A stretch of DNA of 10,856 bases from an uncultured Candidatus Saccharibacteria bacterium (GCA_964429815.1 CAYSCM010000005.1:1-10856), one strand, 5' to 3'; counted from the stretch's first letter, positions 1 to 10,856 are shown. Notes: a model not told the origin generated them from the sequence alone. Translations and numbers: made by a program.

Positions 1-62
1 CTCAATGGTAGAGCAGCTCCCTGTTAAGGAGTTGGTTGTAGGTTCGAGTCCTACCACCGGAG
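1..62 (+). tRNA. tRNA-Asn (anticodon GUU), 5'-truncated by the window edge; CCA not encoded
   Basis: D-arm GCTCAATGGTAGAGC-like at 1-14. Anticodon stem gctcc/ggagt (16-20/28-32) with 7-nt loop CTGTTAA gives anticodon GTT. Variable loop tggtt. T-arm gtagg-TTCGAGT-cctac (38-54). 3' acceptor strand caccgga plus discriminator g (55-62). Confidence 0.8.
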
Positions 63-146: not shown

Positions 147-362
147 ATGTCTCGCGTCACTATTACGTTTTCGATCTCTTTACTCCCCGACATGGCCGCG
201 GACTTGGATCGCGTTTGCAAAGAGGAGCACCGCACGCGGTCCGAGCTAATCCGAGAGGCACTGCGACGATATTTTGCCCTTCGCACATTTTGGAAAGACA
301 AACTCGACCAGGCTCCGCTGGAGGCTTCATCGCCTCACCCACCGCGAGCTCCTGGGCGGTGA
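147..362 (+). CDS. Ribbon-helix-helix (CopG/ParD-type) DNA-binding protein, putative antitoxin or transcriptional repressor, 71 aa
   Basis: N-terminus MSRVTITFSISLLPDMAADLDRVCKEEHRTRSELIREALRRYF matches the RHH beta-strand-helix-helix pattern (T-I-T-F/L...SELIREAL). Direct repeats tgccggc at ~110 and ~141 upstream could form an operator. No partner toxin ORF lies downstream. Confidence 0.6.
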   Translation: MSRVTITFSISLLPDMAADLDRVCKEEHRTRSELIREALRRYFALRTFWKDKLDQAPLEASSPHPPRAPGR

Positions 363-1730: not shown

Positions 1731-2090
1731 TCACTCCTTCGCGAAGAGAAGATTTGCAATCTGGCGAATGACTGACTGGTGGTCGTCCTCCTGGATCTTC
1801 TCGATAAACACCGCAAGCTCGTCGAGCGTTGGGTTGTCGCCGCCAAAGTTCGGTGAGAGAGCGTTGACCTCACAGACGACGCTGAACACGAGACAGGCGG
1901 TGCGTTTGTTGCCGTCGGTGAACGGGTGATCTTTGATGAGGAAATAGATATACGCCACAGCCTTCTCTTCGATCGTGGCGTAGTTGGGTGCTCCGTAGTG
2001 GGCGCCCGTGATGTTCACGACGATAGACTCGACGATCTGCTGCGCCGAGACCGTCAGAGGGAATGAGACCAGCCCCTCCTTATGCAGCAA
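1731..2090 (-). CDS. doc: Doc (death-on-curing) toxin, Fic/Doc family kinase. Probable TTG start at 2090; the maximal ORF runs to a GTG at 2159
   Basis: Diagnostic Doc motif H-P-F-T-D-G-N-K-R (HxFx[D/N][A/G]NKR) in IKDHPFTDGNKRTA. N-terminal region IVESIVVNITGAHYG aligns to phage P1 Doc LIALHDANISRYGG. Starting at TTG gives a Doc-sized ~119-aa protein that overlaps the upstream ORF's stop by 11 nt. The GTG start at 2159 would overlap the upstream ORF by 80 nt. Confidence 0.85.
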   Translation of the reverse strand: MLHKEGLVSFPLTVSAQQIVESIVVNITGAHYGAPNYATIEEKAVAYIYFLIKDHPFTDGNKRTACLVFSVVCEVNALSPNFGGDNPTLDELAVFIEKIQEDDHQSVIRQIANLLFAKE

Positions 2091-2271
2091 CTCGTATACG
2101 AGGCAGACGCTTTTCGGCGGTACGAGTTGAAATGTTCTTTTTCCCGGTGTCGTAGTCACGAAGCGATTCTAAGACGGGCAGGTTCTTCTTGAGCTGCCCT
2201 TGTGCAACCTTCTCAAAGGATCCTTTTGCTGTTGTGCGGCGTTTGCTAGCCATACGGCGATTATACCTCAT
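2080..2271 (-). CDS. Putative antitoxin partner of Doc (not recognisably Phd/YefM-like). In-frame starts at TTG 2286, ATG 2271 and ATG 2253
   Basis: Small basic ORF immediately upstream of doc, whose TAA stop is embedded in the doc 5' region. It is placed by its position alone, which matches the toxin-antitoxin operon arrangement. Sequence …MASKRRTTAKGSFEKVAQGQLKKNLPVLESLRDYDTGKK…. Confidence 0.5.
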   Translation of the reverse strand: MRYNRRMASKRRTTAKGSFEKVAQGQLKKNLPVLESLRDYDTGKKNISTRTAEKRLPRIRVAA

Positions 2272-2286
2272 AATCGACACAATCAA
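2254..2286 (-). promoter_or_regulatory. Candidate sigma70-type promoter of the antitoxin-doc operon: TTGATT (2286..2281) - 15 bp - TATAAT (2265..2260), with ATG 2253 only 6 nt downstream (possible leaderless transcript)
   Basis: Hexamers read directly on the minus strand. The spacer is short (15 bp), so the call is tentative. Confidence 0.35.
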
Positions 2287-3074: not shown

Positions 3075-3752
3075 ATGAGAAGAATTGCATTAATGCTTGG
3101 ATCCCTTGGGTTTCTTGCAGTAGGTAGCGTGGCGTTCGCGCAGACAGCGTCCACGACTACTAGTGGCACAACAACTGCAGCCCCCGCACAGCAGATAGTT
3201 CTGCAGATTGGCCCCACAGGCAAGGTTCTTTTGCGCGGCACCATTGATTCAGTGTCGGCGACGTCTCTCACCGTCAAGAGCTGGGGCGGTGATTGGACTA
3301 TAAACGTACCCGCGTCTGCTGGGGTCATGCCGCAGGGCGTTGCGCTCTCAAGCTTCCATCAGGGTGACTTTGTCGGAGTTCATGGAACGGTCAACCAAAG
3401 CAGCAGTTGGACCATTGACGCAACCCTCGTGCGCGACTGGACCGCGCGTCAAGCATTGAATCAAGAGATAAAGAACAATGTTCAGACGGTACATCGGGAA
3501 ATGGCAGCCGGACCGAGAACAATCCAGGGAGTCCTTAGCAACCTGAATGCGTCAGCACAGACCTTCACGCTCACATCCTCAGAGGGTACCGCTTACTCGG
3601 TTACGCTGGCTTCGGGCGCAAAACTTCTCGCTCAAAATTGGGCGACGCTTGATCTTAGCAAGGTGAGCAACGGGGATACGGTTCGCGTATACGGAACGAT
3701 CTCGGGCTCGGCAATATCAGCGACGATCTTCCGAGATGTGTCGGTGAAATAA
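3075..3752 (+). CDS. Secreted protein with two tandem DUF5666-like beta domains, 225 aa
   Basis: Sec signal peptide MRRIALMLGSLGFLAVGSVAFA|Q, then a T/S/A-rich linker. The ~85-aa module is present twice (GKVLLRGTIDSVSATSLTVKSWGGDWTINV…GDFVGVHGTV…TIDATLV and RTIQGVLSNLNASAQTFTLTSSEGTAYSVTL…GDTVRVYGTISGSAISATIF). The pattern G-V/I-…-TLTV/TFTL…GD-V-V-G matches the DUF5666 family from memory. Confidence 0.75.
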   Translation: MRRIALMLGSLGFLAVGSVAFAQTASTTTSGTTTAAPAQQIVLQIGPTGKVLLRGTIDSVSATSLTVKSWGGDWTINVPASAGVMPQGVALSSFHQGDFVGVHGTVNQSSSWTIDATLVRDWTARQALNQEIKNNVQTVHREMAAGPRTIQGVLSNLNASAQTFTLTSSEGTAYSVTLASGAKLLAQNWATLDLSKVSNGDTVRVYGTISGSAISATIFRDVSVK

Positions 3753-4138: not shown

Positions 4139-4543
4139 ATGAACCCCGTCGTTCACTTCGAGATGCCCTACGAGAACCGCGATCGTATGGCGGACTTTTA
4201 TTCGCAGGCGTTCGGATGGCAGCTCAATAAGCTGGGGTCTGACATGGGCGACTACGTCGTCGCTATGACCTCGGAGCGCTCCGACCCGAGAGCCCGCCCG
4301 GAGAAGCCCGGCGTTATCGATGGTGGCTTCTTTAAGAAAAGTAAGCAAAACCAGGTGCCGGGCATCGTCGTAGCCGTCGACGATATCAAAGCCGCGATGA
4401 GGAAGGTCGAGGCTTCCGGCGGAAAAATAATCGGCGCGAGCCAAGGAAAGGAACCTGACGACATCCCCGGCGTCGGGCTCTATATCTCGATTCAAGATAC
4501 CGAGGGTAACCGCGTGGCGCTTCTTGAGCCGCGAGGAATGTAG
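4139..4543 (+). CDS. VOC (glyoxalase/bleomycin-resistance/dioxygenase) family protein, 134 aa
   Basis: N-terminal VHFEMPYENRDRMADFYSQAFGW, a beta-alpha-beta-beta-beta module start typical of PhnB/glyoxalase-like VOC proteins. C-terminal …GLYISIQDTEGNRVALLEP. Confidence 0.8.
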   Translation: MNPVVHFEMPYENRDRMADFYSQAFGWQLNKLGSDMGDYVVAMTSERSDPRARPEKPGVIDGGFFKKSKQNQVPGIVVAVDDIKAAMRKVEASGGKIIGASQGKEPDDIPGVGLYISIQDTEGNRVALLEPRGM

Positions 4544-4545
4544 CC

Positions 4546-4932
4546 ATGTTCAAAAACACTCCGACATTTACGAGCATCTCCGCTCCCGACATTGCCGCGA
4601 TGAGGGCCTTTTATGGCGACGTACTCGGACTTCCGGTCGATGAGGCTCCCGAGGGACTCACCGTCAAGCTTTTCGGCGGCGGCCACTTCTTCATCTATCC
4701 TTCAGAGGAGTACCGCGCGCCTGAACATACGGTCCTCAATTTCATTGTTCCCGATATAGACAAAGCCGTGGATAGGCTCAATGCCAAGAGCGTCACGATG
4801 GAGCAGTATCCGGAATTCCGGACCGATGAGAGGGGCATTTGCCGCAACGACGGGAAGCGGCCCGGACCCAAGGCCATCGCGTGGTTCAAGGACCCGGCAG
4901 AGCACATCCTCGCGGTGATAGAGGAAAAGTGA
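4546..4932 (+). CDS. Second VOC/glyoxalase-family protein, 128 aa. Starts 2 nt after the previous stop, so likely co-transcribed.
   Basis: AMRAFYGDVLGLPV…HTVLNFIVPDIDKAVDRL…AIAWFKDPAEHILAVIE, a VOC-fold pattern. Confidence 0.75.
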   Translation: MFKNTPTFTSISAPDIAAMRAFYGDVLGLPVDEAPEGLTVKLFGGGHFFIYPSEEYRAPEHTVLNFIVPDIDKAVDRLNAKSVTMEQYPEFRTDERGICRNDGKRPGPKAIAWFKDPAEHILAVIEEK

Positions 4933-4969: not shown

Positions 4970-5305
4970 ATGAAGAAATTTTTAGCACTCCTCAATGCCC
5001 CGCTCGCCTCCTTCGATAGGGCGCTCAAAATGCCAAAAGAGGATATGGGCCCGGCAATGGAGGCGTGGAACACATGGATGGCCGCGCACAAGAAAGATCT
5101 CATTGACCCGGGTGCTCCTGTCGGCAAGAGCATGAAAGTCACTCCCGCCGGAGCAGAAAAGTTCCGCAACCAGGTCGGCGGCTACATGGTGGTCCAGGCG
5201 AAATCGCTCGAGGAGGCGGCCAAACTGTTCGGTAAAGGCCACCCGCACTATATGCTCGAGAACGCATGGGTCGAGGTGACGGAAATACTGCCGATGGATA
5301 TGTAA
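4970..5305 (+). CDS. YciI-like / dimeric alpha+beta-barrel (Dabb) family protein, 111 aa
   Basis: MKKFLALLNAPL… …GGYMVVQAKSLEEAAKLFGKGHPHY…VEV resembles the YCII-related domain signature. Confidence 0.55.
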   Translation: MKKFLALLNAPLASFDRALKMPKEDMGPAMEAWNTWMAAHKKDLIDPGAPVGKSMKVTPAGAEKFRNQVGGYMVVQAKSLEEAAKLFGKGHPHYMLENAWVEVTEILPMDM

Positions 5306-5447: not shown

Positions 5448-6443
5448 TTAGTCCACTACGTCGAGGATGGTCGAGTACTTGTCCGCATAGCTCTCTCCCA
5501 AATCGGGACAAACGAACGCGGCCTTGATGCTCCCATCCCTGCCGCGTAGCGCATCGAGCCTTCCTGAATCTTTCTCCTTCCGAAGAAAGTCAAGAAGTCC
5601 TACGTAGGCAAGGCCGGAACTTGGCCCTGGGCAAACGCCGAGCGCTCTGCGAAGGTCGAGGCTCGCTTGGTAGGCGCGCGAACGCTTCCCGAGCGTCATG
5701 AGGGCACCCTCGGAGATAGCGCTTCTCCAAGGGAGACGCACGAGCTCTAGGGATAGTTTGCTTTCGGCGCGAACGCCGGGCACCGGTCCCTCGTCCCCTT
5801 CCGCGCACACCACACCGACGACCTTGGTGGAAAATTCGCAAGCCCGTATGTAACGGGCAAGACCCACCACGGTGCCGCCGGTACCGACACCGGCGGCGAC
5901 CGCTGAGAGGGTTGCCTCGAAGGGGTCGAGGATCTTCGGCGCAAGGAATTTCTCGAACGCCTTCGGATTGTCGTCGTTGTCGTACTGGTCGAGGTTGAGG
6001 TATCCGGGTTCTTTGCCCTTTTCTCGCGCACGCTCGATGCAGGTAGCCTCTCCTTCACGTTCGGGAAAATCCTGGAAGCGTGCGCCGTAGAAACGCAGAA
6101 GCGCGAGCTTAGTGAGTGGTGTGTCCGAGCGCACGTAGAGCTCGACTTTGAGACCGAAGGCCGGCGCCGCGATCGCAAGCCCAAGCCCGGTGTTCCCTGA
6201 CGTACCTTCGACGATTGTATGTACGCCCTCAAGACGTCCGGCTTCATGCGCGCGAAGGAGCATGTACACCGCCGGGATGACCTTGTGCGGGAGTCCTGCC
6301 TTGTCGAACCCGAGTGCCGCAAAAATCCTGACCTGGTCCGTGATGAGTGGGTCAAACCCCGTCGGAATCCTCACCAAGGGGACGCTTCGGTTTTGGGGAT
6401 GGAGGAACTTTAAAATCCCCCCACTCCCGTTTGGCGTCTTCAT
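5448..6443 (-). CDS. PLP-dependent fold-type-II enzyme of the cysteine synthase / cystathionine beta-synthase family (CysK/CysM/SbnA-like), 331 aa from ATG 6443
   Basis: PHKVIPAVYMLLRAHEAG (PLP-Lys region). IVEGTSGNTGLGLAIAA matches the VEPTSGNTGIALA motif. QYDNDDNPKAFEKFLAPKILD matches QFxNPxNPxxHxxTTGPEI. AAGVGTGGTVVGLARYI matches the G-rich loop GVGTGGT. GGAGAG SD lies 8 nt upstream of ATG 6443. The longer ORF to 6557 would run into the panD promoter. Confidence 0.85.
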   Translation of the reverse strand: MKTPNGSGGILKFLHPQNRSVPLVRIPTGFDPLITDQVRIFAALGFDKAGLPHKVIPAVYMLLRAHEAGRLEGVHTIVEGTSGNTGLGLAIAAPAFGLKVELYVRSDTPLTKLALLRFYGARFQDFPEREGEATCIERAREKGKEPGYLNLDQYDNDDNPKAFEKFLAPKILDPFEATLSAVAAGVGTGGTVVGLARYIRACEFSTKVVGVVCAEGDEGPVPGVRAESKLSLELVRLPWRSAISEGALMTLGKRSRAYQASLDLRRALGVCPGPSSGLAYVGLLDFLRKEKDSGRLDALRGRDGSIKAAFVCPDLGESYADKYSTILDVVD

Positions 6444-6549
6444 AGTGCTCTCCGTAGTCGTTGAACGGTATGCGGCCGCGCCGCACATTCCGCCTAGAGC
6501 GTAATCCGCCCGTGCCACGCTGTCAAAGACGGTGGTATACTTTGGTGCC

Positions 6550-6927
6550 ATGCTCATAAACGTCTGTATAGCGAAGATCCATCGAGCGACTGTGACCGAT
6601 GCGGACCTCGACTACGTAGGCTCCATCACCATCGACCAAAACATCCTCGAGGCGGCCGGGCTTCGTCCTGGGCAAATGGTCCAGATAACCAATGTTAGCA
6701 ACGCCGTGCTCTGGCGGACCTACATACTCGCCGGAAAAGCCGGGAGGGGCGATATCGTTCTCAACGGCCCCCCGGCGCGCCTTTTTAAAAAAGGCGATAA
6801 GGTCATCATCCTCGGCGAGGCATATCTCGAACCCTCAGAAGTCAAAGATTCGCATCCGACCGTCGTGTTCGTCGACGAAAAAAATAAGATCATCCGCGTC
6901 GAGGAGAGCGCCTGGAAGAAGTCGTAG
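6550..6927 (+). CDS. panD: Aspartate 1-decarboxylase (pyruvoyl-dependent), PanD; alternative GTG start at 6532
   Basis: Near-full-length match to PanD: AKIHRATVTDADLDYVGSITIDQNILEAAGL…Y…GRGDIVLNGPPARLFKKGDKVIILGEAYLEPSEV…PTVVFVD. Includes catalytic K and H, the Gly-Ser self-cleavage site (VG|SITID) and the C-terminal pattern seen in Thermus-type PanD. ATG 6550 gives the canonical N-terminal length. An extended -10 at 6533-6541 suggests a near-leaderless mRNA. Confidence 0.9.
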   Translation: MLINVCIAKIHRATVTDADLDYVGSITIDQNILEAAGLRPGQMVQITNVSNAVLWRTYILAGKAGRGDIVLNGPPARLFKKGDKVIILGEAYLEPSEVKDSHPTVVFVDEKNKIIRVEESAWKKS

Positions 6928-6930
6928 GAC

Positions 6931-7542
6931 ATGTGGTGGTCACCGACCCATTGGGTGAATGTCATTTTGGCCGCTTCGGTCCCCCACCACTGGCTCATGC
7001 CGGTCTCTATCATCGCCGGCACATGGATCCTCGAAGACCTGACCACCATTCTCGTCGGCATCCTGGCCGCGGACGGACTTATCAAGATAGGAGTAGCACT
7101 CATCGCCCTTTGGATAGGCATCATCACGGGCGACTACGGCCTCTACTTCCTTGGTATGCTTGCCAAAACCCATCCGCGCATCCGGCGGTTTGTCGAACAC
7201 GAGCGGCTCCTCCCCATACGACGGCGCCTTGAGCGCAATCTGCGTGAGGTCGTCATTTCGACGCGCTTCATTCCGGGATTGCGACTCCCCACCTACGTCG
7301 CCTGCGGATTTTTCCGGATGCCGTTTTGGGAATTCGCGCAGTCGGTCGTCCTTGCAACCCTCATCTGGACCACAGGGCTCTTCGCCGTGGCGTACCTCTT
7401 CGGTCAATCGACCTCTGACTGGCTTGGTTTCTGGCGGTGGCCGATCGCGATAGGGGTGTCAGCTTTTTTCTTTTTTATGGCGAAGCGAAGAGCGAAGCGC
7501 ACTGCGTATGAAGACAACAATGAACGAACCGACCCCCGCTGA
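6931..7542 (+). CDS. DedA / SNARE-associated (VTT domain) family inner-membrane protein, 203 aa
   Basis: Multi-TM hydropathy. DedA signature …GLYFLGMLAK…STRFIPGLRLPTYVACG (R-F-IPG-R…AG). Starts 4 nt after the panD stop, so same operon. Confidence 0.85.
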   Translation: MWWSPTHWVNVILAASVPHHWLMPVSIIAGTWILEDLTTILVGILAADGLIKIGVALIALWIGIITGDYGLYFLGMLAKTHPRIRRFVEHERLLPIRRRLERNLREVVISTRFIPGLRLPTYVACGFFRMPFWEFAQSVVLATLIWTTGLFAVAYLFGQSTSDWLGFWRWPIAIGVSAFFFFMAKRRAKRTAYEDNNERTDPR

Positions 7543-8638
7543 CATAGACCGGAGATGGCATGAACTTTCGGGGCGCCTTCCCGGTGAGCCGATTTTCAGT
7601 TTTTTCGAGAATTGGCCGGGTTCCTTTTTCTACATTCCTGTCGCGGTGGCGTGGTTTTTCTACGCGCTGCGCTACCGAAGCTTCACGCTTCCGCTCCTCA
7701 GCAATCCGTCGATAGAATTCGCGGGGCTGTGCGGAGAGAGCAAGTGCGGGGTCCTCAGCCTCTTGGGATCCTCCGGAAAGGAGCGGGTAGCCTCCTACAT
7801 GCGATTTGAAAATACCACCGGGCGCGCGAGCGCGGATGAGCTCTTGGGTAGTGCCACCGCTGGCGGCCTCCGGCTCCCCTTCGTTCTCAAACCCGACATC
7901 GGACGGCGCGGCACGGGGGTGCGCATCGTGCGGACGAAGGAAGACGTCGAAGCCTACCTTGAAGCTTTTCCGCGAGGCCGCGCTCTCATCGTCCAGCGGC
8001 TTATCGAAGAAGAAGGCGAAGCGGGGGTCATGTACCTGCGCTACCCCGGCGAAGGACGGGGGAAAATCATCTCGCTTACCCTTAAGTACTTCCCTGCCGT
8101 CGTCGGCGATGGCAGAGCAAGCCTTCGGGAGCTCATTTTGCGCGATGAGCGCGCCCGCCGGCTTGCCAAGAGCTACTTCACGTACCACAAAGATTCTCTG
8201 GAAACTATCGTGCCGCGGGGGAAACGCATAAAGTTGGTTGCTGTCGGAAACCACGTGCGCGGTTCTCTCTTTCGGGATGGCCGCCCGTTCATAACGTCGG
8301 GCATGACCGACGCATTCGACAAGATCGCGCGTGAAATCCCGCATTTCCACCTTGGACGGTTTGACGTGCGCTTCGAGAAACTCTCTGACCTCGCCGTCGG
8401 AGAAAACTTCACCATCATCGAGGTAAACGGCGCCGGAAGCGAGGCGACCCACATTTGGGACCGCCGTGCGAAGCTTTTTGACTCCTATCGAACGCTCTTT
8501 GCGCATGCCAAGGCGCTCTTCGACATCGGCCTCCACTACAAACGCGAAGGCCGTAGAGCTCCCTCGTTCGGGGAAATCGCTCGGGCCTATGTCGCGGAAA
8601 AAAAACTTCTCGCTTCGTATCCCCCGCTTACGGAGTAG
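7508..8638 (+). CDS. ATP-grasp ligase (RimK / alpha-L-glutamate-ligase-like) with an N-terminal transmembrane anchor, 376 aa
   Basis: N-terminal TM helix SFFYIPVAVAWFFYAL. ATP-grasp core: LPFVLKPDIGRRGTGVRIV (K-P…G-x-G-V), ALIVQRLIEEE, and the Mg-binding IIEVNGAGSE (E-x-N motif as in RimK/Ddl). The start overlaps dedA by 35 nt. An in-frame ATG at 7520 is an alternative. Confidence 0.8.
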   Translation: MKTTMNEPTPADIDRRWHELSGRLPGEPIFSFFENWPGSFFYIPVAVAWFFYALRYRSFTLPLLSNPSIEFAGLCGESKCGVLSLLGSSGKERVASYMRFENTTGRASADELLGSATAGGLRLPFVLKPDIGRRGTGVRIVRTKEDVEAYLEAFPRGRALIVQRLIEEEGEAGVMYLRYPGEGRGKIISLTLKYFPAVVGDGRASLRELILRDERARRLAKSYFTYHKDSLETIVPRGKRIKLVAVGNHVRGSLFRDGRPFITSGMTDAFDKIAREIPHFHLGRFDVRFEKLSDLAVGENFTIIEVNGAGSEATHIWDRRAKLFDSYRTLFAHAKALFDIGLHYKREGRRAPSFGEIARAYVAEKKLLASYPPLTE

Positions 8639-10856
8639 AGAGCGTCGTTGATGACGTTGATGACGTTGATGACGTTGATGACGTTGATGACGTTTCGACT
8701 ATAACGGTGCGCGTGCTCGTCGCGGTGTTTCCCGCTGCATCGGTCGCGACGTAGTCGATAGTATGGGTGCCAGGAAGACCAGTATTGAGAGAAACTTCCA
8801 TGACAGCGACCCCATCGACGTAGGTCGTATATCCGAGGTTTTGGCTCACATTGTCGGAGACGGTGGCGCCAAGGTCGGAATACGCCTCTCCCACGTGAAT
8901 GGTGGCGGGGTTATTACCTTGTATGACGATAGTCGGCGGCGTCGAATCCAAAGAGGTTTTCGAGATACTCCCTCCCGATGATGTGCTGCTGGAACTTACG
9001 CTCAAGCTTCCTGTTGTACCTGCCGCCGCGGAGGCTGAGAGGAGTTTCACGAGGTCATCTTTCGTCACGCACACGCCGCTGACGCACAACTTTTCGACAT
9101 AGACAATGTCGGAGTGGACTTCCTTTGCGAACACGCGATCGAACACTCCGGCCGCAGCGTAGATAGCGCCGTCGAATGCATGGACGAGTAGTTGTCCGAG
9201 AGAGGAGAGCGCGTCACGAAGTTCCTGAGAGCTGTCGGAAAACGCTCCGGCTCCTGCGACGCTCGACGTTGCCGCACCGGGAGGTGCAACGAGATATGAA
9301 ATCGTCGTCGTCGGCAAAAGCGGAGCGACAAGGGCATGGAGCTCCTGGACGGCGGAGACGAGGTAGGGGGTAAAGCCCGCATAATTGAGGGCGAGCGTCC
9401 CCCAACTACTTTGATATACCAGATCGGGTGCGATCTTCTGAACTTCTTGCGCAAGAAAACCTGTGTGAGTCGGGGTTCCTGAAGCCTCGGCAAGCCAGTT
9501 ATAGGTCACGGGATTAAGGGACAAGACCGTTCCAAGTGCGGGGGCGAGCTTCTCGATATTATTTTTAAGCGTCGCATCGGACGAACAGGTAACACCGGTC
9601 GTCGGGATGATCCAACAACCGCCAGCAGCATTACCGAAGGCAGCGACGGCAGTGGCGGCGCCCACGGAAGCATTGCCAACGGAGAGAAGGGACGAGGTTG
9701 CGGTTGTTGTGCCGATACCGACACTGCCCGTGTAGTTAATCGTGATGGTCGAAGTGCTCGTCGTTGCAAAGCTATCCGAGCTCGTGGCGATGTAGAGGTT
9801 CCCGCCGTTGGAGCGTATAGACCAGTGCTTTTGGTTAGACCCTGCGCTCGGATCGGTAAGGGTAAGCTGTGGACCGGTCGAAGATGCGATTTGAAGTGCC
9901 CACTGCGGAGTCGTGGTGCCTATGCCCAAAATCCCGCTCGGGGCTATCGTAAGAGGCCCGGGGCCTGATGAGGTCGCATAGGTAGAAGGAGAGGATGTCG
10001 AGAAGTACAGAAAGCCGCCGGCATTTCTGAAGCTCCAGTGAACGTTCGTAAGGGAGGATGGGTCCGAGAGCGCAAGTTGTGCTCCGGTCGAGCTCGCAAT
10101 TTGGAGGGCCCACTGCGGTGAGGTCGTGCCGATGCCGACCTTGAGCGCTCCGGCGAGGGCGAGCGCAGTGGTATCGGTCGTCGAAGTTGCCCATTGAGTA
10201 CAGCCCGCCGCAGTGATGAGCCCATTTTTGTCCGTGCGCAGACAGGCTGTATTGGTACCCCCTAAACTTGAAAGCCAGAAATTTGTCGTTGAGGCATTCG
10301 TGCTCACAAAGTTTGTCGTGGTCGCCGAGGTGCCGGTCGCGTTCACGAAGGTGAAATTCTGGAGCGTCGTGGAGCCAGTGGCCAGAAGAGTGCTGAAGGT
10401 GCCGAGTCCCGTCGAGGTGATGTTGCCAGCGGAGAGGACGGTGGCGAAGAGATTGGTGGAAGAGGCGGTGGTTGAGAAAATGGTCGAGCTTGTGGCATTC
10501 CCCAAGGTCGTCGTGGCAAGGGTGGCGAATGAAGCGAATACGTTCGTTGAGGAAGCTGTGGTCGTAAACAACGTCGAGCTCGTGGCGTTCCCTAGTGTCG
10601 TCGTCGCCGCGTTGAGGTTGCTAGCAAAGAGATTGGTGCTGCTGGCGGTGGTCGAAAAGATGGTCGACGAGGTGGCATTCCCTAAAGTCGTGGTGGCAAG
10701 AGTGATAAAGGAAGCGAACAAGTTCGTCGAAGAGGCGGTAGTGGCAAAGAACGTCGAGCTCGTGGCATTGCCTAGAGTTGTCGTAGCCGCGTTGAGATTA
10801 CTGGCAAAGAGGTTGGTGGAGGAGGCGGTCGTTGCGAAGAAAGAGGTGCTGGTTGC
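8631..10856 (-). CDS. Large Thr/Ser/Ala-rich repetitive fibre / tailspike-like protein with a C-terminal S74 intramolecular-chaperone domain, an Ig-like (DUF5011-like) domain and a (TSS)5 tail. The 5' end (N-terminus) lies beyond the window end.
   Basis: The minus-strand frame stays open from 10856 to the TAA at 8628-8630. The apparent start at 10721 is a TTG inside a repeat, and upstream codons continue the same 30-aa repeat. 30-aa repeats ATTTLGNATSSTxFxTTASSTNLFAS… span ~10390-10856. A duplicated module IGTT(S/T)PQWALQIASSTG…W S(F/I)R(N/S)(A/N)GG(F/N)LY lies at ~9700-10140. The S74 signature CSS|DATLKNNIEKLAPALGTVLSLNPVTYNWL…GFLAQEVQKIAPDLV…GTLALNYAGFTPYLVSAVQEL (SDxxxK; cleavage Ser codon ~9579-9581) is followed by a ~160-aa chaperone body. 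PTIVIQGNNPATIHVGEAYSDLGATVSDNV…THTIDYVATDAAGNTATSTRTVIV lies at ~8694-8939. Confidence 0.85.
8647..8691. repeat. Perfect 9-bp x5 tandem repeat (gttgatgac)5 encoding (TSS)5 at the C-terminus of the fibre protein
   Basis: Read directly. Partial copies flank it (8644-8646, 8692-8694). The unit length is a multiple of 3, so copy-number change keeps the frame. Confidence 0.9.
10390..10856. repeat. Imperfect ~90-bp (30-aa) tandem repeats, at least 5 copies in an alternating two-flavour (60-aa) pattern, continuing beyond the window
   Basis: Protein-level repeats (…NLNA-ATTTLGNATSSTxF-TTASSTNLFAS-FxTL-ATTTLGNATSST…). DNA copies are recognisably similar but carry synonymous and near-synonymous differences. 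Confidence 0.8.

Follow-up and report, generated by a model that had tools for sequence, protein, structure and literature searches.

A DedA membrane protein paired with an ATP-grasp ligase, encoded beside a PALP enzyme and a PanD-like decarboxylase with an altered substrate pocket: a candidate system for amidation of a membrane molecule

The ATP-grasp enzymes CphA (cyanophycin synthetase), GshF, Ddl (D-alanine--D-alanine ligase) and RimK all join a carboxylate, activated as an acyl phosphate, to an amine. In MprF a lysyl-phosphatidylglycerol synthase is fused to its own flippase; this enzyme uses aminoacyl-tRNA and makes an ester. For the membrane proteins of the DedA family, among them UptA and YqjA/YghB, the nature of the cargo is a long-standing open question. 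In Gluconobacter cerinus taurine is transferred to the carboxyl group of ornithine lipid, yielding cerilipin; this step is ATP-dependent and its gene is unknown (2026 review, PMC12971839). The characterised fungal enzymes which combine a PALP and a rhodanese domain, Fda4 and AMA synthase, form C-N bonds on O-phosphoserine (PMC12751119). Here we describe a locus of an uncultured Candidatus Saccharibacteria bacterium (GCA_964429815.1, CAYSCM010000005.1:1-10856) in which the genes for a PanD-like decarboxylase, a DedA protein and an ATP-grasp ligase follow each other and are divergent from the gene for a pyridoxal-phosphate (PLP) dependent enzyme of the PALP family (Table 1). The stretch analysed, called the window below, is the whole 10,856-bp contig; it is contained in a 98-kb Logan contig, and about 21 kb were readable in total.

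The DedA protein and the ligase appear to be an obligate pair which works as one machine, since they are adjacent in 74 out of 80 loci and fused in 91 out of 149 representatives. When one genome of each species was scanned, the ligase was detected in at least 584 species, the majority of them Alpha-, Beta- and Gammaproteobacteria. The species-locus counts given here and below refer to the best 80 of these, nearly all from Proteobacteria, and the fusion counts to the best 149 family representatives; neighbouring genes were analysed as stop-to-stop open reading frames (ORFs) grouped into BLAST clusters, not as called genes. By tblastn with the window proteins a DedA gene was located in 74 of the 80 ligase loci, in 71 of them directly upstream and on the same strand, and three of the six loci with no DedA match are contig ends. 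The DedA-containing fusions comprise 85 DedA-ligase proteins, five in which an alpha/beta-hydrolase domain precedes DedA and the ligase, and one with the order TANGO2-hydrolase-DedA-ligase. Three further proteins are hydrolase-ligase fusions and one joins DinB_2 to the ligase. The suggestion of the first-pass annotation that the ATP-grasp enzyme acts at the membrane together with DedA is well supported by these adjacencies and fusions. A full-text literature search for "DedA" together with "ATP-grasp" returned nothing connecting the two, as far as titles and abstracts tell.

Table 1. Coordinates of the genes of the locus and of the spacer between the divergent genes
Feature	Position	Strand	Remarks
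CysK-superfamily PLP beta-replacement enzyme (PALP), divergent	5448..6443	minus	331 aa from Met39; ORF possible to 6557
Divergent intergenic region, 106 bp	6444..6549		between the PALP and panD-like starts
Putative PanD-like pyruvoyl-dependent decarboxylase, altered substrate pocket, 125 aa	6550..6927	plus	PF02261, TIGR00223
DedA/VTT-domain membrane protein, 203 aa	6931..7542	plus	PF09335
Predicted membrane-anchored ATP-grasp carboxylate-amine ligase, 376 aa, uncharacterised family	7508..8638	plus	AF2 fold, Foldseek, invariant residues

The DedA protein of the window matches PF09335 (VTT_dom) with 53.9 bits against a cut-off of 33.9. It has several hydrophobic segments, an E35-D36 pair in the first of them, and the sequence R-F-I-P-G-L-R at residue 112, which fits the pattern R-x-x-P-x-x-R. 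The VTT domain, the acidic pair and the arginine motif are shared with UptA and with YqjA/YghB, whereas what marks the subfamily found here is that its members are partnered with, or fused to, an ATP-grasp ligase. Its best NCBIfam match is the UptA equivalog NF052604, but the score of 26.6 bits lies below the cut-off of 250.

No Pfam family, RimK included, matched the ligase. The NCBIfam matches were weak: cyanophycin synthetase (TIGR02068) gave 24 bits against a cut-off of 850, with an alignment restricted to the G-domain part, and RimK (TIGR00768) gave 17.3 bits against 143.4, so that the earlier assignment to the RimK/alpha-L-glutamate-ligase type was not upheld. An AF2 model calculated with an alignment of 27 sequences has an ATP-grasp fold (pLDDT 89.9). 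The best Foldseek matches of this model are the G domain of the cyanophycin synthetase CphA1, GshF, Ddl and RimK, with a probability of 1.00 and E values from 1.6e-10 to 1e-6, at 12-22% sequence identity (12-16% to Ddl). Invariant in the 27 sequences are K128, E171, R284-x-D286 and E305-x-N307, which correspond to the ATP-binding lysine and the Mg ligands; a pseudo-enzyme lacking this lysine, which the first-pass annotation had allowed for, is therefore not what the family encodes. The motifs K-P-D-x-G-x-R-G-x-G-V, E-A-G, G-R-F-D-V-R-F and E-x-N-G-A-G are invariant in the family, and E34, Y42, P44, P67, G73 and K79 are conserved in the N-terminal part. From the invariant motifs, the confident model and the closest solved folds we place the protein as a predicted, catalytically intact ATP-grasp carboxylate-amine ligase outside the CphA, GshF, Ddl and RimK families. 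Fold, ATP-binding lysine and the R-x-D ... E-x-N motif are common to the ligase, the G domain of CphA, the C-terminal domain of GshF, Ddl and RimK. In contrast to these enzymes, the ligase described here has a hydrophobic anchor with invariant residues of its own where they have the N-terminal substrate domain, and the obligate pairing or fusion with DedA is peculiar to it.

The N-terminal transmembrane helix noted earlier could be confirmed in part. A helix of 17-19 residues, rich in aromatic side chains, is present at residues 38-56, but it is only moderately hydrophobic; over this helix the 19-residue Kyte-Doolittle window stays below 1.4. It may be a transmembrane span or a monotopic anchor which dips into one leaflet.

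The ligase family is large: a word search found at least 898 homologues, and at 50% identity there are 1592 clusters (E<=1e-30). Its name in NCBI and UniRef, carried by P0245-P0399 of the Acetobacteraceae and by many proteobacterial members, is "D-alanine--D-alanine ligase". We considered this identity and rejected it: there was no bacterial Ddl model among the NCBIfam matches, and a hydrophobic helix stands in the place of the N-terminal domain of Ddl. Judged by the sequences the name looks like a propagated misannotation.

The divergently transcribed enzyme, taken as the ORF 5448..6557, matches PF00291 (PALP) with 120 bits (E 1.3e-34). The NCBIfam equivalogs for CysK, CysM, SbnA and cysteate synthase gave 111, 99.5, 95.7, 90.4 and 58.8 bits, in each case below the cut-offs of 344-600. 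The enzyme belongs to a rare clade and its nearest relative is 46% identical. Across 16 members of the clade K55, S83-G84-N85, G188-x-x-G191-T192-x-x-G195 and P275-S276-S277-G278 are conserved; the invariant K55 would be the lysine forming the Schiff base with PLP. The lysine, the asparagine loop and the glycine-rich phosphate loop of fold-type II PLP enzymes are thus all present, and this core is common to the enzyme, CysK/CysM, SbnA, CapA, Fda4 and AMA synthase. Fusions to rhodanese occur among the members of the clade, including proteins from basidiomycetes, whereas the window enzyme differs from the fungal Fda4 and AMA synthase by having no rhodanese domain. Among solved structures its best relative is 8H4H/8H4Q, a protein with PALP and rhodanese domains (E 8.5e-37, compared to 3.6e-25 for ordinary cysteine synthases), named "rhodanese domain-containing protein" by its depositors. 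To equate it with AMA synthase or Fda4 would be a guess.

A metagenome scan with the alignment of the PALP clade yielded 52 loci, 46 of them unique. A decarboxylase gene adjoins the PALP gene in 31 of the 46 unique loci, and in 19 of the 22 in which the flanks are long, in line with the earlier proposal that the PLP enzyme and the decarboxylase serve one small pathway. This decarboxylase is either PanD-like, 58-75% identical to the protein of the window, or an unrelated group II PLP decarboxylase. PanP is the second-best NCBIfam match of the latter, with 124-162 bits against a cut-off of 606 and below the match to diaminobutyrate decarboxylase. Because two unrelated decarboxylases fill the same slot, the product of the PALP enzyme could well be the substrate of the decarboxylase. 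The pair also occurs with three unrelated amide-forming enzymes, namely the ATP-grasp ligase, a CofE/F420-ligase-like domain at five loci (L085, L091, L099, L128 and L139), which is sometimes fused to PanD, and an asparagine-synthase-like protein of 611 aa at ten loci. This threefold association suggests that the amine is subsequently ligated to something, and the CofE-like domain found with PanD-like proteins looks like another ligase solution for the same amine.

As to the nature of this amine, a CysH-like PAPS reductase is encoded near the PALP gene in eight loci (148 bits against a cut-off of 154) and a YeiH-type transporter recurs near PALP genes. Together with the rhodanese-fused relatives these neighbours point to sulfur chemistry, although a product with a C-N bond is possible. 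Our leading guess is an ethylamine of the cysteamine or taurine type.

Two of the proteins mentioned have unusual features. The 611-aa protein (L086, 3074-4909, and nine others) is encoded between the PLP decarboxylase and the PALP enzyme; it has no Pfam match and weak similarity to models of asparagine synthase and of lasso-peptide cyclase. At L085 (8590-10014, minus strand) a 474-aa fusion of a PanD-like and a CofE/F420-0:gamma-glutamyl-ligase-like domain is encoded near the genes for a CysH-like PAPS reductase and a PALP enzyme.

The PanD-like protein of the window scores above the curated cut-offs of TIGR00223 (119.9 bits against 106) and PF02261 (134 bits against 25, E 2.5e-39). A gap-free alignment with the PanD proteins of E. 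coli and M. tuberculosis showed that Lys9, His11, Tyr22, Gly24-Ser25, Thr57, Tyr58 and Asn72 are retained, whereas Arg54 is replaced by Leu and Ala74-Ala75 by Pro-Pro. The replacements are not confined to the window: all 12 PALP-linked PanD-like proteins have Leu, Phe, Tyr or Ile at position 54 and Pro-Pro at positions 74-75, and Trp55 is invariant among them. In aspartate 1-decarboxylases Arg54, Ala74 and Ala75 are among the strictly conserved residues, and Arg54 is a substrate-specificity residue (PMC3314653). Owing to their loss throughout this clade beta-alanine is an unlikely product, contrary to the first-pass annotation, which had taken PanD as the source of beta-alanine, and the enzyme is probably not an aspartate decarboxylase. 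The loss of the cationic residue speaks against aspartate and somewhat against cysteate, and favours a substrate with a neutral side chain. With genuine PanD the protein has the fold, the Gly24-Ser25 processing site and the catalytic residues in common, but its partner is a beta-replacement PLP enzyme instead of panB/panC, and in relatives a CofE-like ligase domain is fused to it. The PALP-linked clade thus looks like a pyruvoyl decarboxylase which no longer acts on aspartate. It also calls for caution, as a match to panD need not mean synthesis of beta-alanine or coenzyme A (CoA), especially in small or incomplete genomes.

Several loci connect the PALP-decarboxylase pair to the DedA-ligase pair. 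L084, which contains the closest PALP relative and is duplicated in L092, has the order BacA - unknown - ATP-grasp - DedA, divergent from PanD-like - two unknowns - PALP; the four genes are the same as in the window, but their order and orientation are different. In L083 and L141, whose ligases (P0005 and P0003) are 51-54% identical to that of the window, the order is DedA - ligase - PLP decarboxylase, the last being 48-52% identical to the PALP-linked ones. Including L142, where a DedA-ligase fusion is divergent from a PLP-like gene of 537 aa and the decarboxylase gene, an orthologous PLP decarboxylase (48-87% identical) adjoins DedA-ATP-grasp in three loci. The link of the pathway to the ligase that had been proposed for the window is therefore seen elsewhere. 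The arrangement in the window exceeds chance: adjacency and fusion of DedA and ATP-grasp recur, and the four-gene set reappears rearranged in L084/L092. The 537-aa gene is also present in L140, at the end of the contig. The protein encoded by this gene, of 470-540 aa (L140, 1-1413; L142, 2741-4354), has a fold-type-I-like S-G-S-K-F motif and no family match; it is divergent from DedA-ATP-grasp fusions, and in L142 a Rieske-type oxygenase and the PLP decarboxylase adjoin it.

The reading we put first, tentatively and at slightly less than an even chance, is that the PALP enzyme and the PanD-like protein make a small amine, and that the DedA-ATP-grasp pair joins this amine by an amide bond to a membrane molecule with a carboxyl group. 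The PALP enzyme would turn an activated serine into a beta-substituted alanine, and the PanD-like enzyme lacking Arg54 would strip the alpha-carboxyl group to leave a 2-substituted ethylamine, for example of the cysteamine or taurine type, and not beta-alanine. The ATP-grasp domain at the cytoplasmic face would convert the carboxyl group of a membrane-embedded molecule to the acyl phosphate and then to the amide with this amine, and DedA would present the lipid or carry the product across the membrane. What the comparative data show is that the two pairs exist, that fusions occur and that the catalytic residues are intact; the chemistry, that is the identities of amine and acceptor and a role of DedA as presenter or flippase, is what we infer. 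As a logic only, the scheme resembles MprF in that a head-group-modifying catalytic domain at the cytoplasmic face would be combined with a membrane domain devoted to translocation; the proteins belong to unrelated families, and the DedA-ligase system is ATP-dependent and presumably amide-forming.

Several observations weigh against this scheme. None of the 80 proteobacterial loci contains a gene for a decarboxylase/PanD or a PALP enzyme; L082, which encodes the closest relative of the ligase (P0002, 60% identical), has the order PAP2 - DedA - ligase with no decarboxylase, and L144 and L146 are bare two-gene operons devoid of PanD and PALP. A general role of PanD and PALP is not supported by these loci. 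Conversely, about 29 of the 31 PALP-decarboxylase pairs have no ATP-grasp gene nearby. The absence of PanD and PALP elsewhere implies that the ligase can in general do without an amine made by its own locus; judged by gene content, the two enzymes appear to be lineage-specific accessories of a general DedA-ligase machine. What the PLP enzyme uses as nucleophile and what the decarboxylase acts on are deduced from context and one active-site change, the anchor helix of the ligase is moderately hydrophobic at best, and no aminolipid synthase was seen in the about 21 kb around the window. Furthermore, the survey of neighbours was ORF-based, and its 80 top-scoring loci are nearly all proteobacterial.

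We considered three alternatives to a lipid amidation by all four proteins. The least unlikely of them, which we still hold to be improbable, is that the locus combines two independent modules: PALP and the PanD-like enzyme would supply a soluble compound, for example an osmolyte, a cofactor or a natural-product precursor, and DedA-ATP-grasp would do an unrelated job at the envelope. Each pair is indeed far commoner alone, with DedA-ATP-grasp in at least 584 species and PanD/PALP in none of the 80 loci examined, and with some 29 PLP-decarboxylase loci devoid of ATP-grasp. Such independence is difficult to reconcile with the tight packing of panD, dedA and the ligase gene in the window (a 3-nt gap and a 35-nt overlap), with the rearrangement of the same four genes in L084/L092 and with the orthologous decarboxylase directly beside DedA-ATP-grasp in three further loci. 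A genuine aspartate 1-decarboxylase, whose beta-alanine, alone or together with the amino acid made by the PLP enzyme, is ligated at the membrane by the ATP-grasp enzyme, would explain why TIGR00223 is passed and why the self-processing Gly-Ser and the catalytic Lys9, Tyr58 and Thr57 are kept. PanD and PanP, the PLP-dependent aspartate decarboxylase, are known analogues, and PanP is the second-best match of the alternative decarboxylase. That match, however, is far under its cut-off and weaker than the one to diaminobutyrate decarboxylase; Arg54, which binds the distal carboxylate, is hydrophobic in every PALP-linked member and Ala74-Ala75 is changed (PMC3314653), and from its tight pairing with a beta-replacement enzyme one would expect the product of the latter to be the substrate. 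We regard a beta-alanine pathway as quite unlikely.

The remaining alternative concerns the ligase itself, which could be a peptide-forming enzyme (Ddl-like, L-amino-acid-ligase-like or a polymerase of the cyanophycin/RimK type) with cell-wall or soluble substrates, next to a DedA protein which recycles undecaprenyl phosphate or exports the product. The public annotation points in this direction, as do Ddl, cyanophycin synthetase and RimK among the closest folds, the BacA or PAP2 genes adjoining the pair in several loci, the genes for PBP5 and for MltB- and RlpA-like proteins in Gluconobacter cerinus, and UptA as the best, though weak, NCBIfam match of DedA. But no Ddl model was matched, a conserved hydrophobic helix region stands where an N-terminal substrate domain is usual, and the fusions of DedA with alpha/beta-hydrolase and TANGO2 domains and the clustering with OlsF-, OlsB- and OlsA-like genes favour lipids over peptides. 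To peptide formation we give the lowest probability of the accounts weighed here.

The lipid context was seen in the proteobacterial loci, where the content of the clusters persists and the gene order is shuffled between genera. OlsF-, OlsA- or OlsB-like acyltransferases are encoded within 6 kb of the pair in 42 of the 80 loci: an OlsF-like bifunctional acyltransferase in 22 (443 bits against a cut-off of 620), an OlsA/GlsA-like O-acyltransferase in 13 and an OlsB-like N-acyltransferase in eight. DinB_2 (30 loci), alpha/beta-hydrolase (24), YHS (23), a DoxX-like membrane protein (18) and TANGO2/NRDE (15) also recur. The ORF clusters c42, c43 and c24, located downstream of the alphaproteobacterial acyltransferase gene, were considered as a GNAT gene and turned out to be arginine-rich antisense artefacts. 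Acyloxyacyl aminolipids have a free carboxyl group. Candidates for the acceptor are the carboxylate of an acyloxyacyl aminolipid, another acidic lipid or a polyprenyl-phosphate-linked precursor; the last was kept in play because BacA or PAP2 adjoins the pair in seven loci (L084, L082, L025, L042, L049, L067 and L143).

The multi-domain fusions mirror the gene order of the proteobacterial loci: P0542 (1121 aa) has the order TANGO2 - alpha/beta-hydrolase - DedA - ATP-grasp, and P0467, P0502 and P0538 (855-879 aa) the order alpha/beta-hydrolase - DedA - ATP-grasp. Through fusions of the P0542 type a TANGO2 homologue of bacteria would be connected with a membrane lipid system. The DedA proteins of this subfamily are thus tied to an amide ligase, and some bacteria add a hydrolase and a TANGO2-type domain. 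With DedA and ligase adjacent in hundreds of species and fused in most of the representatives, the substrate of DedA comes within reach of experiments.

Members of the ligase family occur in G. cerinus (P0379) and throughout the Acetobacteraceae. The locus of G. cerinus has the order DedA - ligase - MlaD-like - BacA - amino-acid permease and lies beside genes for PBP5, an RlpA-like and an MltB-like protein; no Ols gene was found within 10 kb of it. Cerilipin formation agrees with what is proposed for the DedA-ligase system in that it uses ATP, an amine of the decarboxylation type, a lipid carboxyl group and a membrane substrate, but the ligase family extends far beyond the Acetobacteraceae and the cerilipin producers. 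The family is a concrete candidate for the orphan ATP-dependent transfer of taurine to ornithine lipid. A wider proposal, which we rate as rather unlikely, is that the DedA-ATP-grasp proteins are general amidoligases of lipid head groups, each with DedA as its built-in subunit for handling the lipid. Their proteobacterial members would include the taurine:ornithine-lipid ligase, an activity that has lacked a gene since the 1970s. In that case the window would hold a self-sufficient version, in which the CysK-like and the Arg54-less PanD-like enzymes form a new two-step route to a sulfur-containing ethylamine of the cysteamine or taurine type for attachment to the lipid; a DedA protein would gain a defined lipid substrate, and a pyruvoyl decarboxylase a new specificity.

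The four genes and their operon layout were recovered as annotated by ORF and profile search. The gap between panD and dedA, given before as 4 nt, is in fact 3 nt (6928-6930). The reading frames of dedA and the ligase gene do overlap, by 35 nt from the ATG at 7508 or by 23 nt from the ATG at 7520, and the divergent spacer of about 106 bp holds if the PALP gene starts at 6443. This start, at Met39, is the likely one, because the PALP relatives are 325-345 aa long and their alignment begins at this residue. In the public gene calls the PALP protein is extended to 367-369 aa and the PanD-like protein is cut to 111 aa from Val21 (ORF 6532-6927; L001, 9085-9420), by which Lys9 and His11 are lost. 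From the lengths of the homologues, which favour 6443 and the ATG at 6550, both calls are almost certainly wrong.

A sigma-70-like site with an extended -10 element is located at 6512-6541 on the plus strand and ends 8 nt before the ATG of panD; the search for promoters in the 106-bp spacer gave this single match, which is no better than shuffled sequences (1 found, 0.9 expected). No credible terminator was detected inside the operon, and an Rfam scan found no riboswitch or other RNA across the operon region, either in the window or in seven related loci. PADLOC gave no defence-system match for any of the five proteins. In the 21 kb readable (the 10.9-kb window and 10 kb more of the 98-kb contig) no panB or panC gene was found.

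Convergent with the ligase gene is a gene for an S/T-rich protein of 697 aa (8628-10721, minus strand); the stops overlap by 11 nt. The protein has three copies of a unit of about 23 residues, TTLGNATSST.F.TTASSTN.FA, a Peptidase_S74 intramolecular-chaperone domain and a bacterial Ig-like domain, and the GC skew is strongly positive here (0.18-0.22). A tie of this fibre gene to the module had been considered possible, but none of about 140 related loci contains a homologue, and by this comparison the gene appears to be unrelated to the module.

On the other side of the locus, two tandem glyoxalase/VOC genes (4139-4543 and 4546-4932) and a weakly matching YCII-like gene (4970-5305) lie just upstream of the PALP gene. 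In L146 DedA-ATP-grasp is likewise followed by a YCII gene, perhaps by coincidence. A Fic/DOC-family protein (1731-2159, minus strand), with a small ORF (2080-2286, minus strand) ahead of it and overlapping it, and a separate small ribbon-helix-helix (CopG-like) protein (147-362, plus strand) are probably of the toxin-antitoxin type and unrelated to the module. The contig opens with a tRNA gene cut at its 5' end (1-62, plus strand; Rfam RF00005, 49.6 bits). A secreted DUF5666-like protein is encoded at 3075-3752; taken with the S74-chaperone fibre gene and the DUF5666-like gene of L084, it hints at a lineage outside the Proteobacteria, possibly among the candidate phyla. The similar protein of L084 follows directly after the PALP gene (7092-7967), which suggests that the source organisms of the window and of L084 are related.

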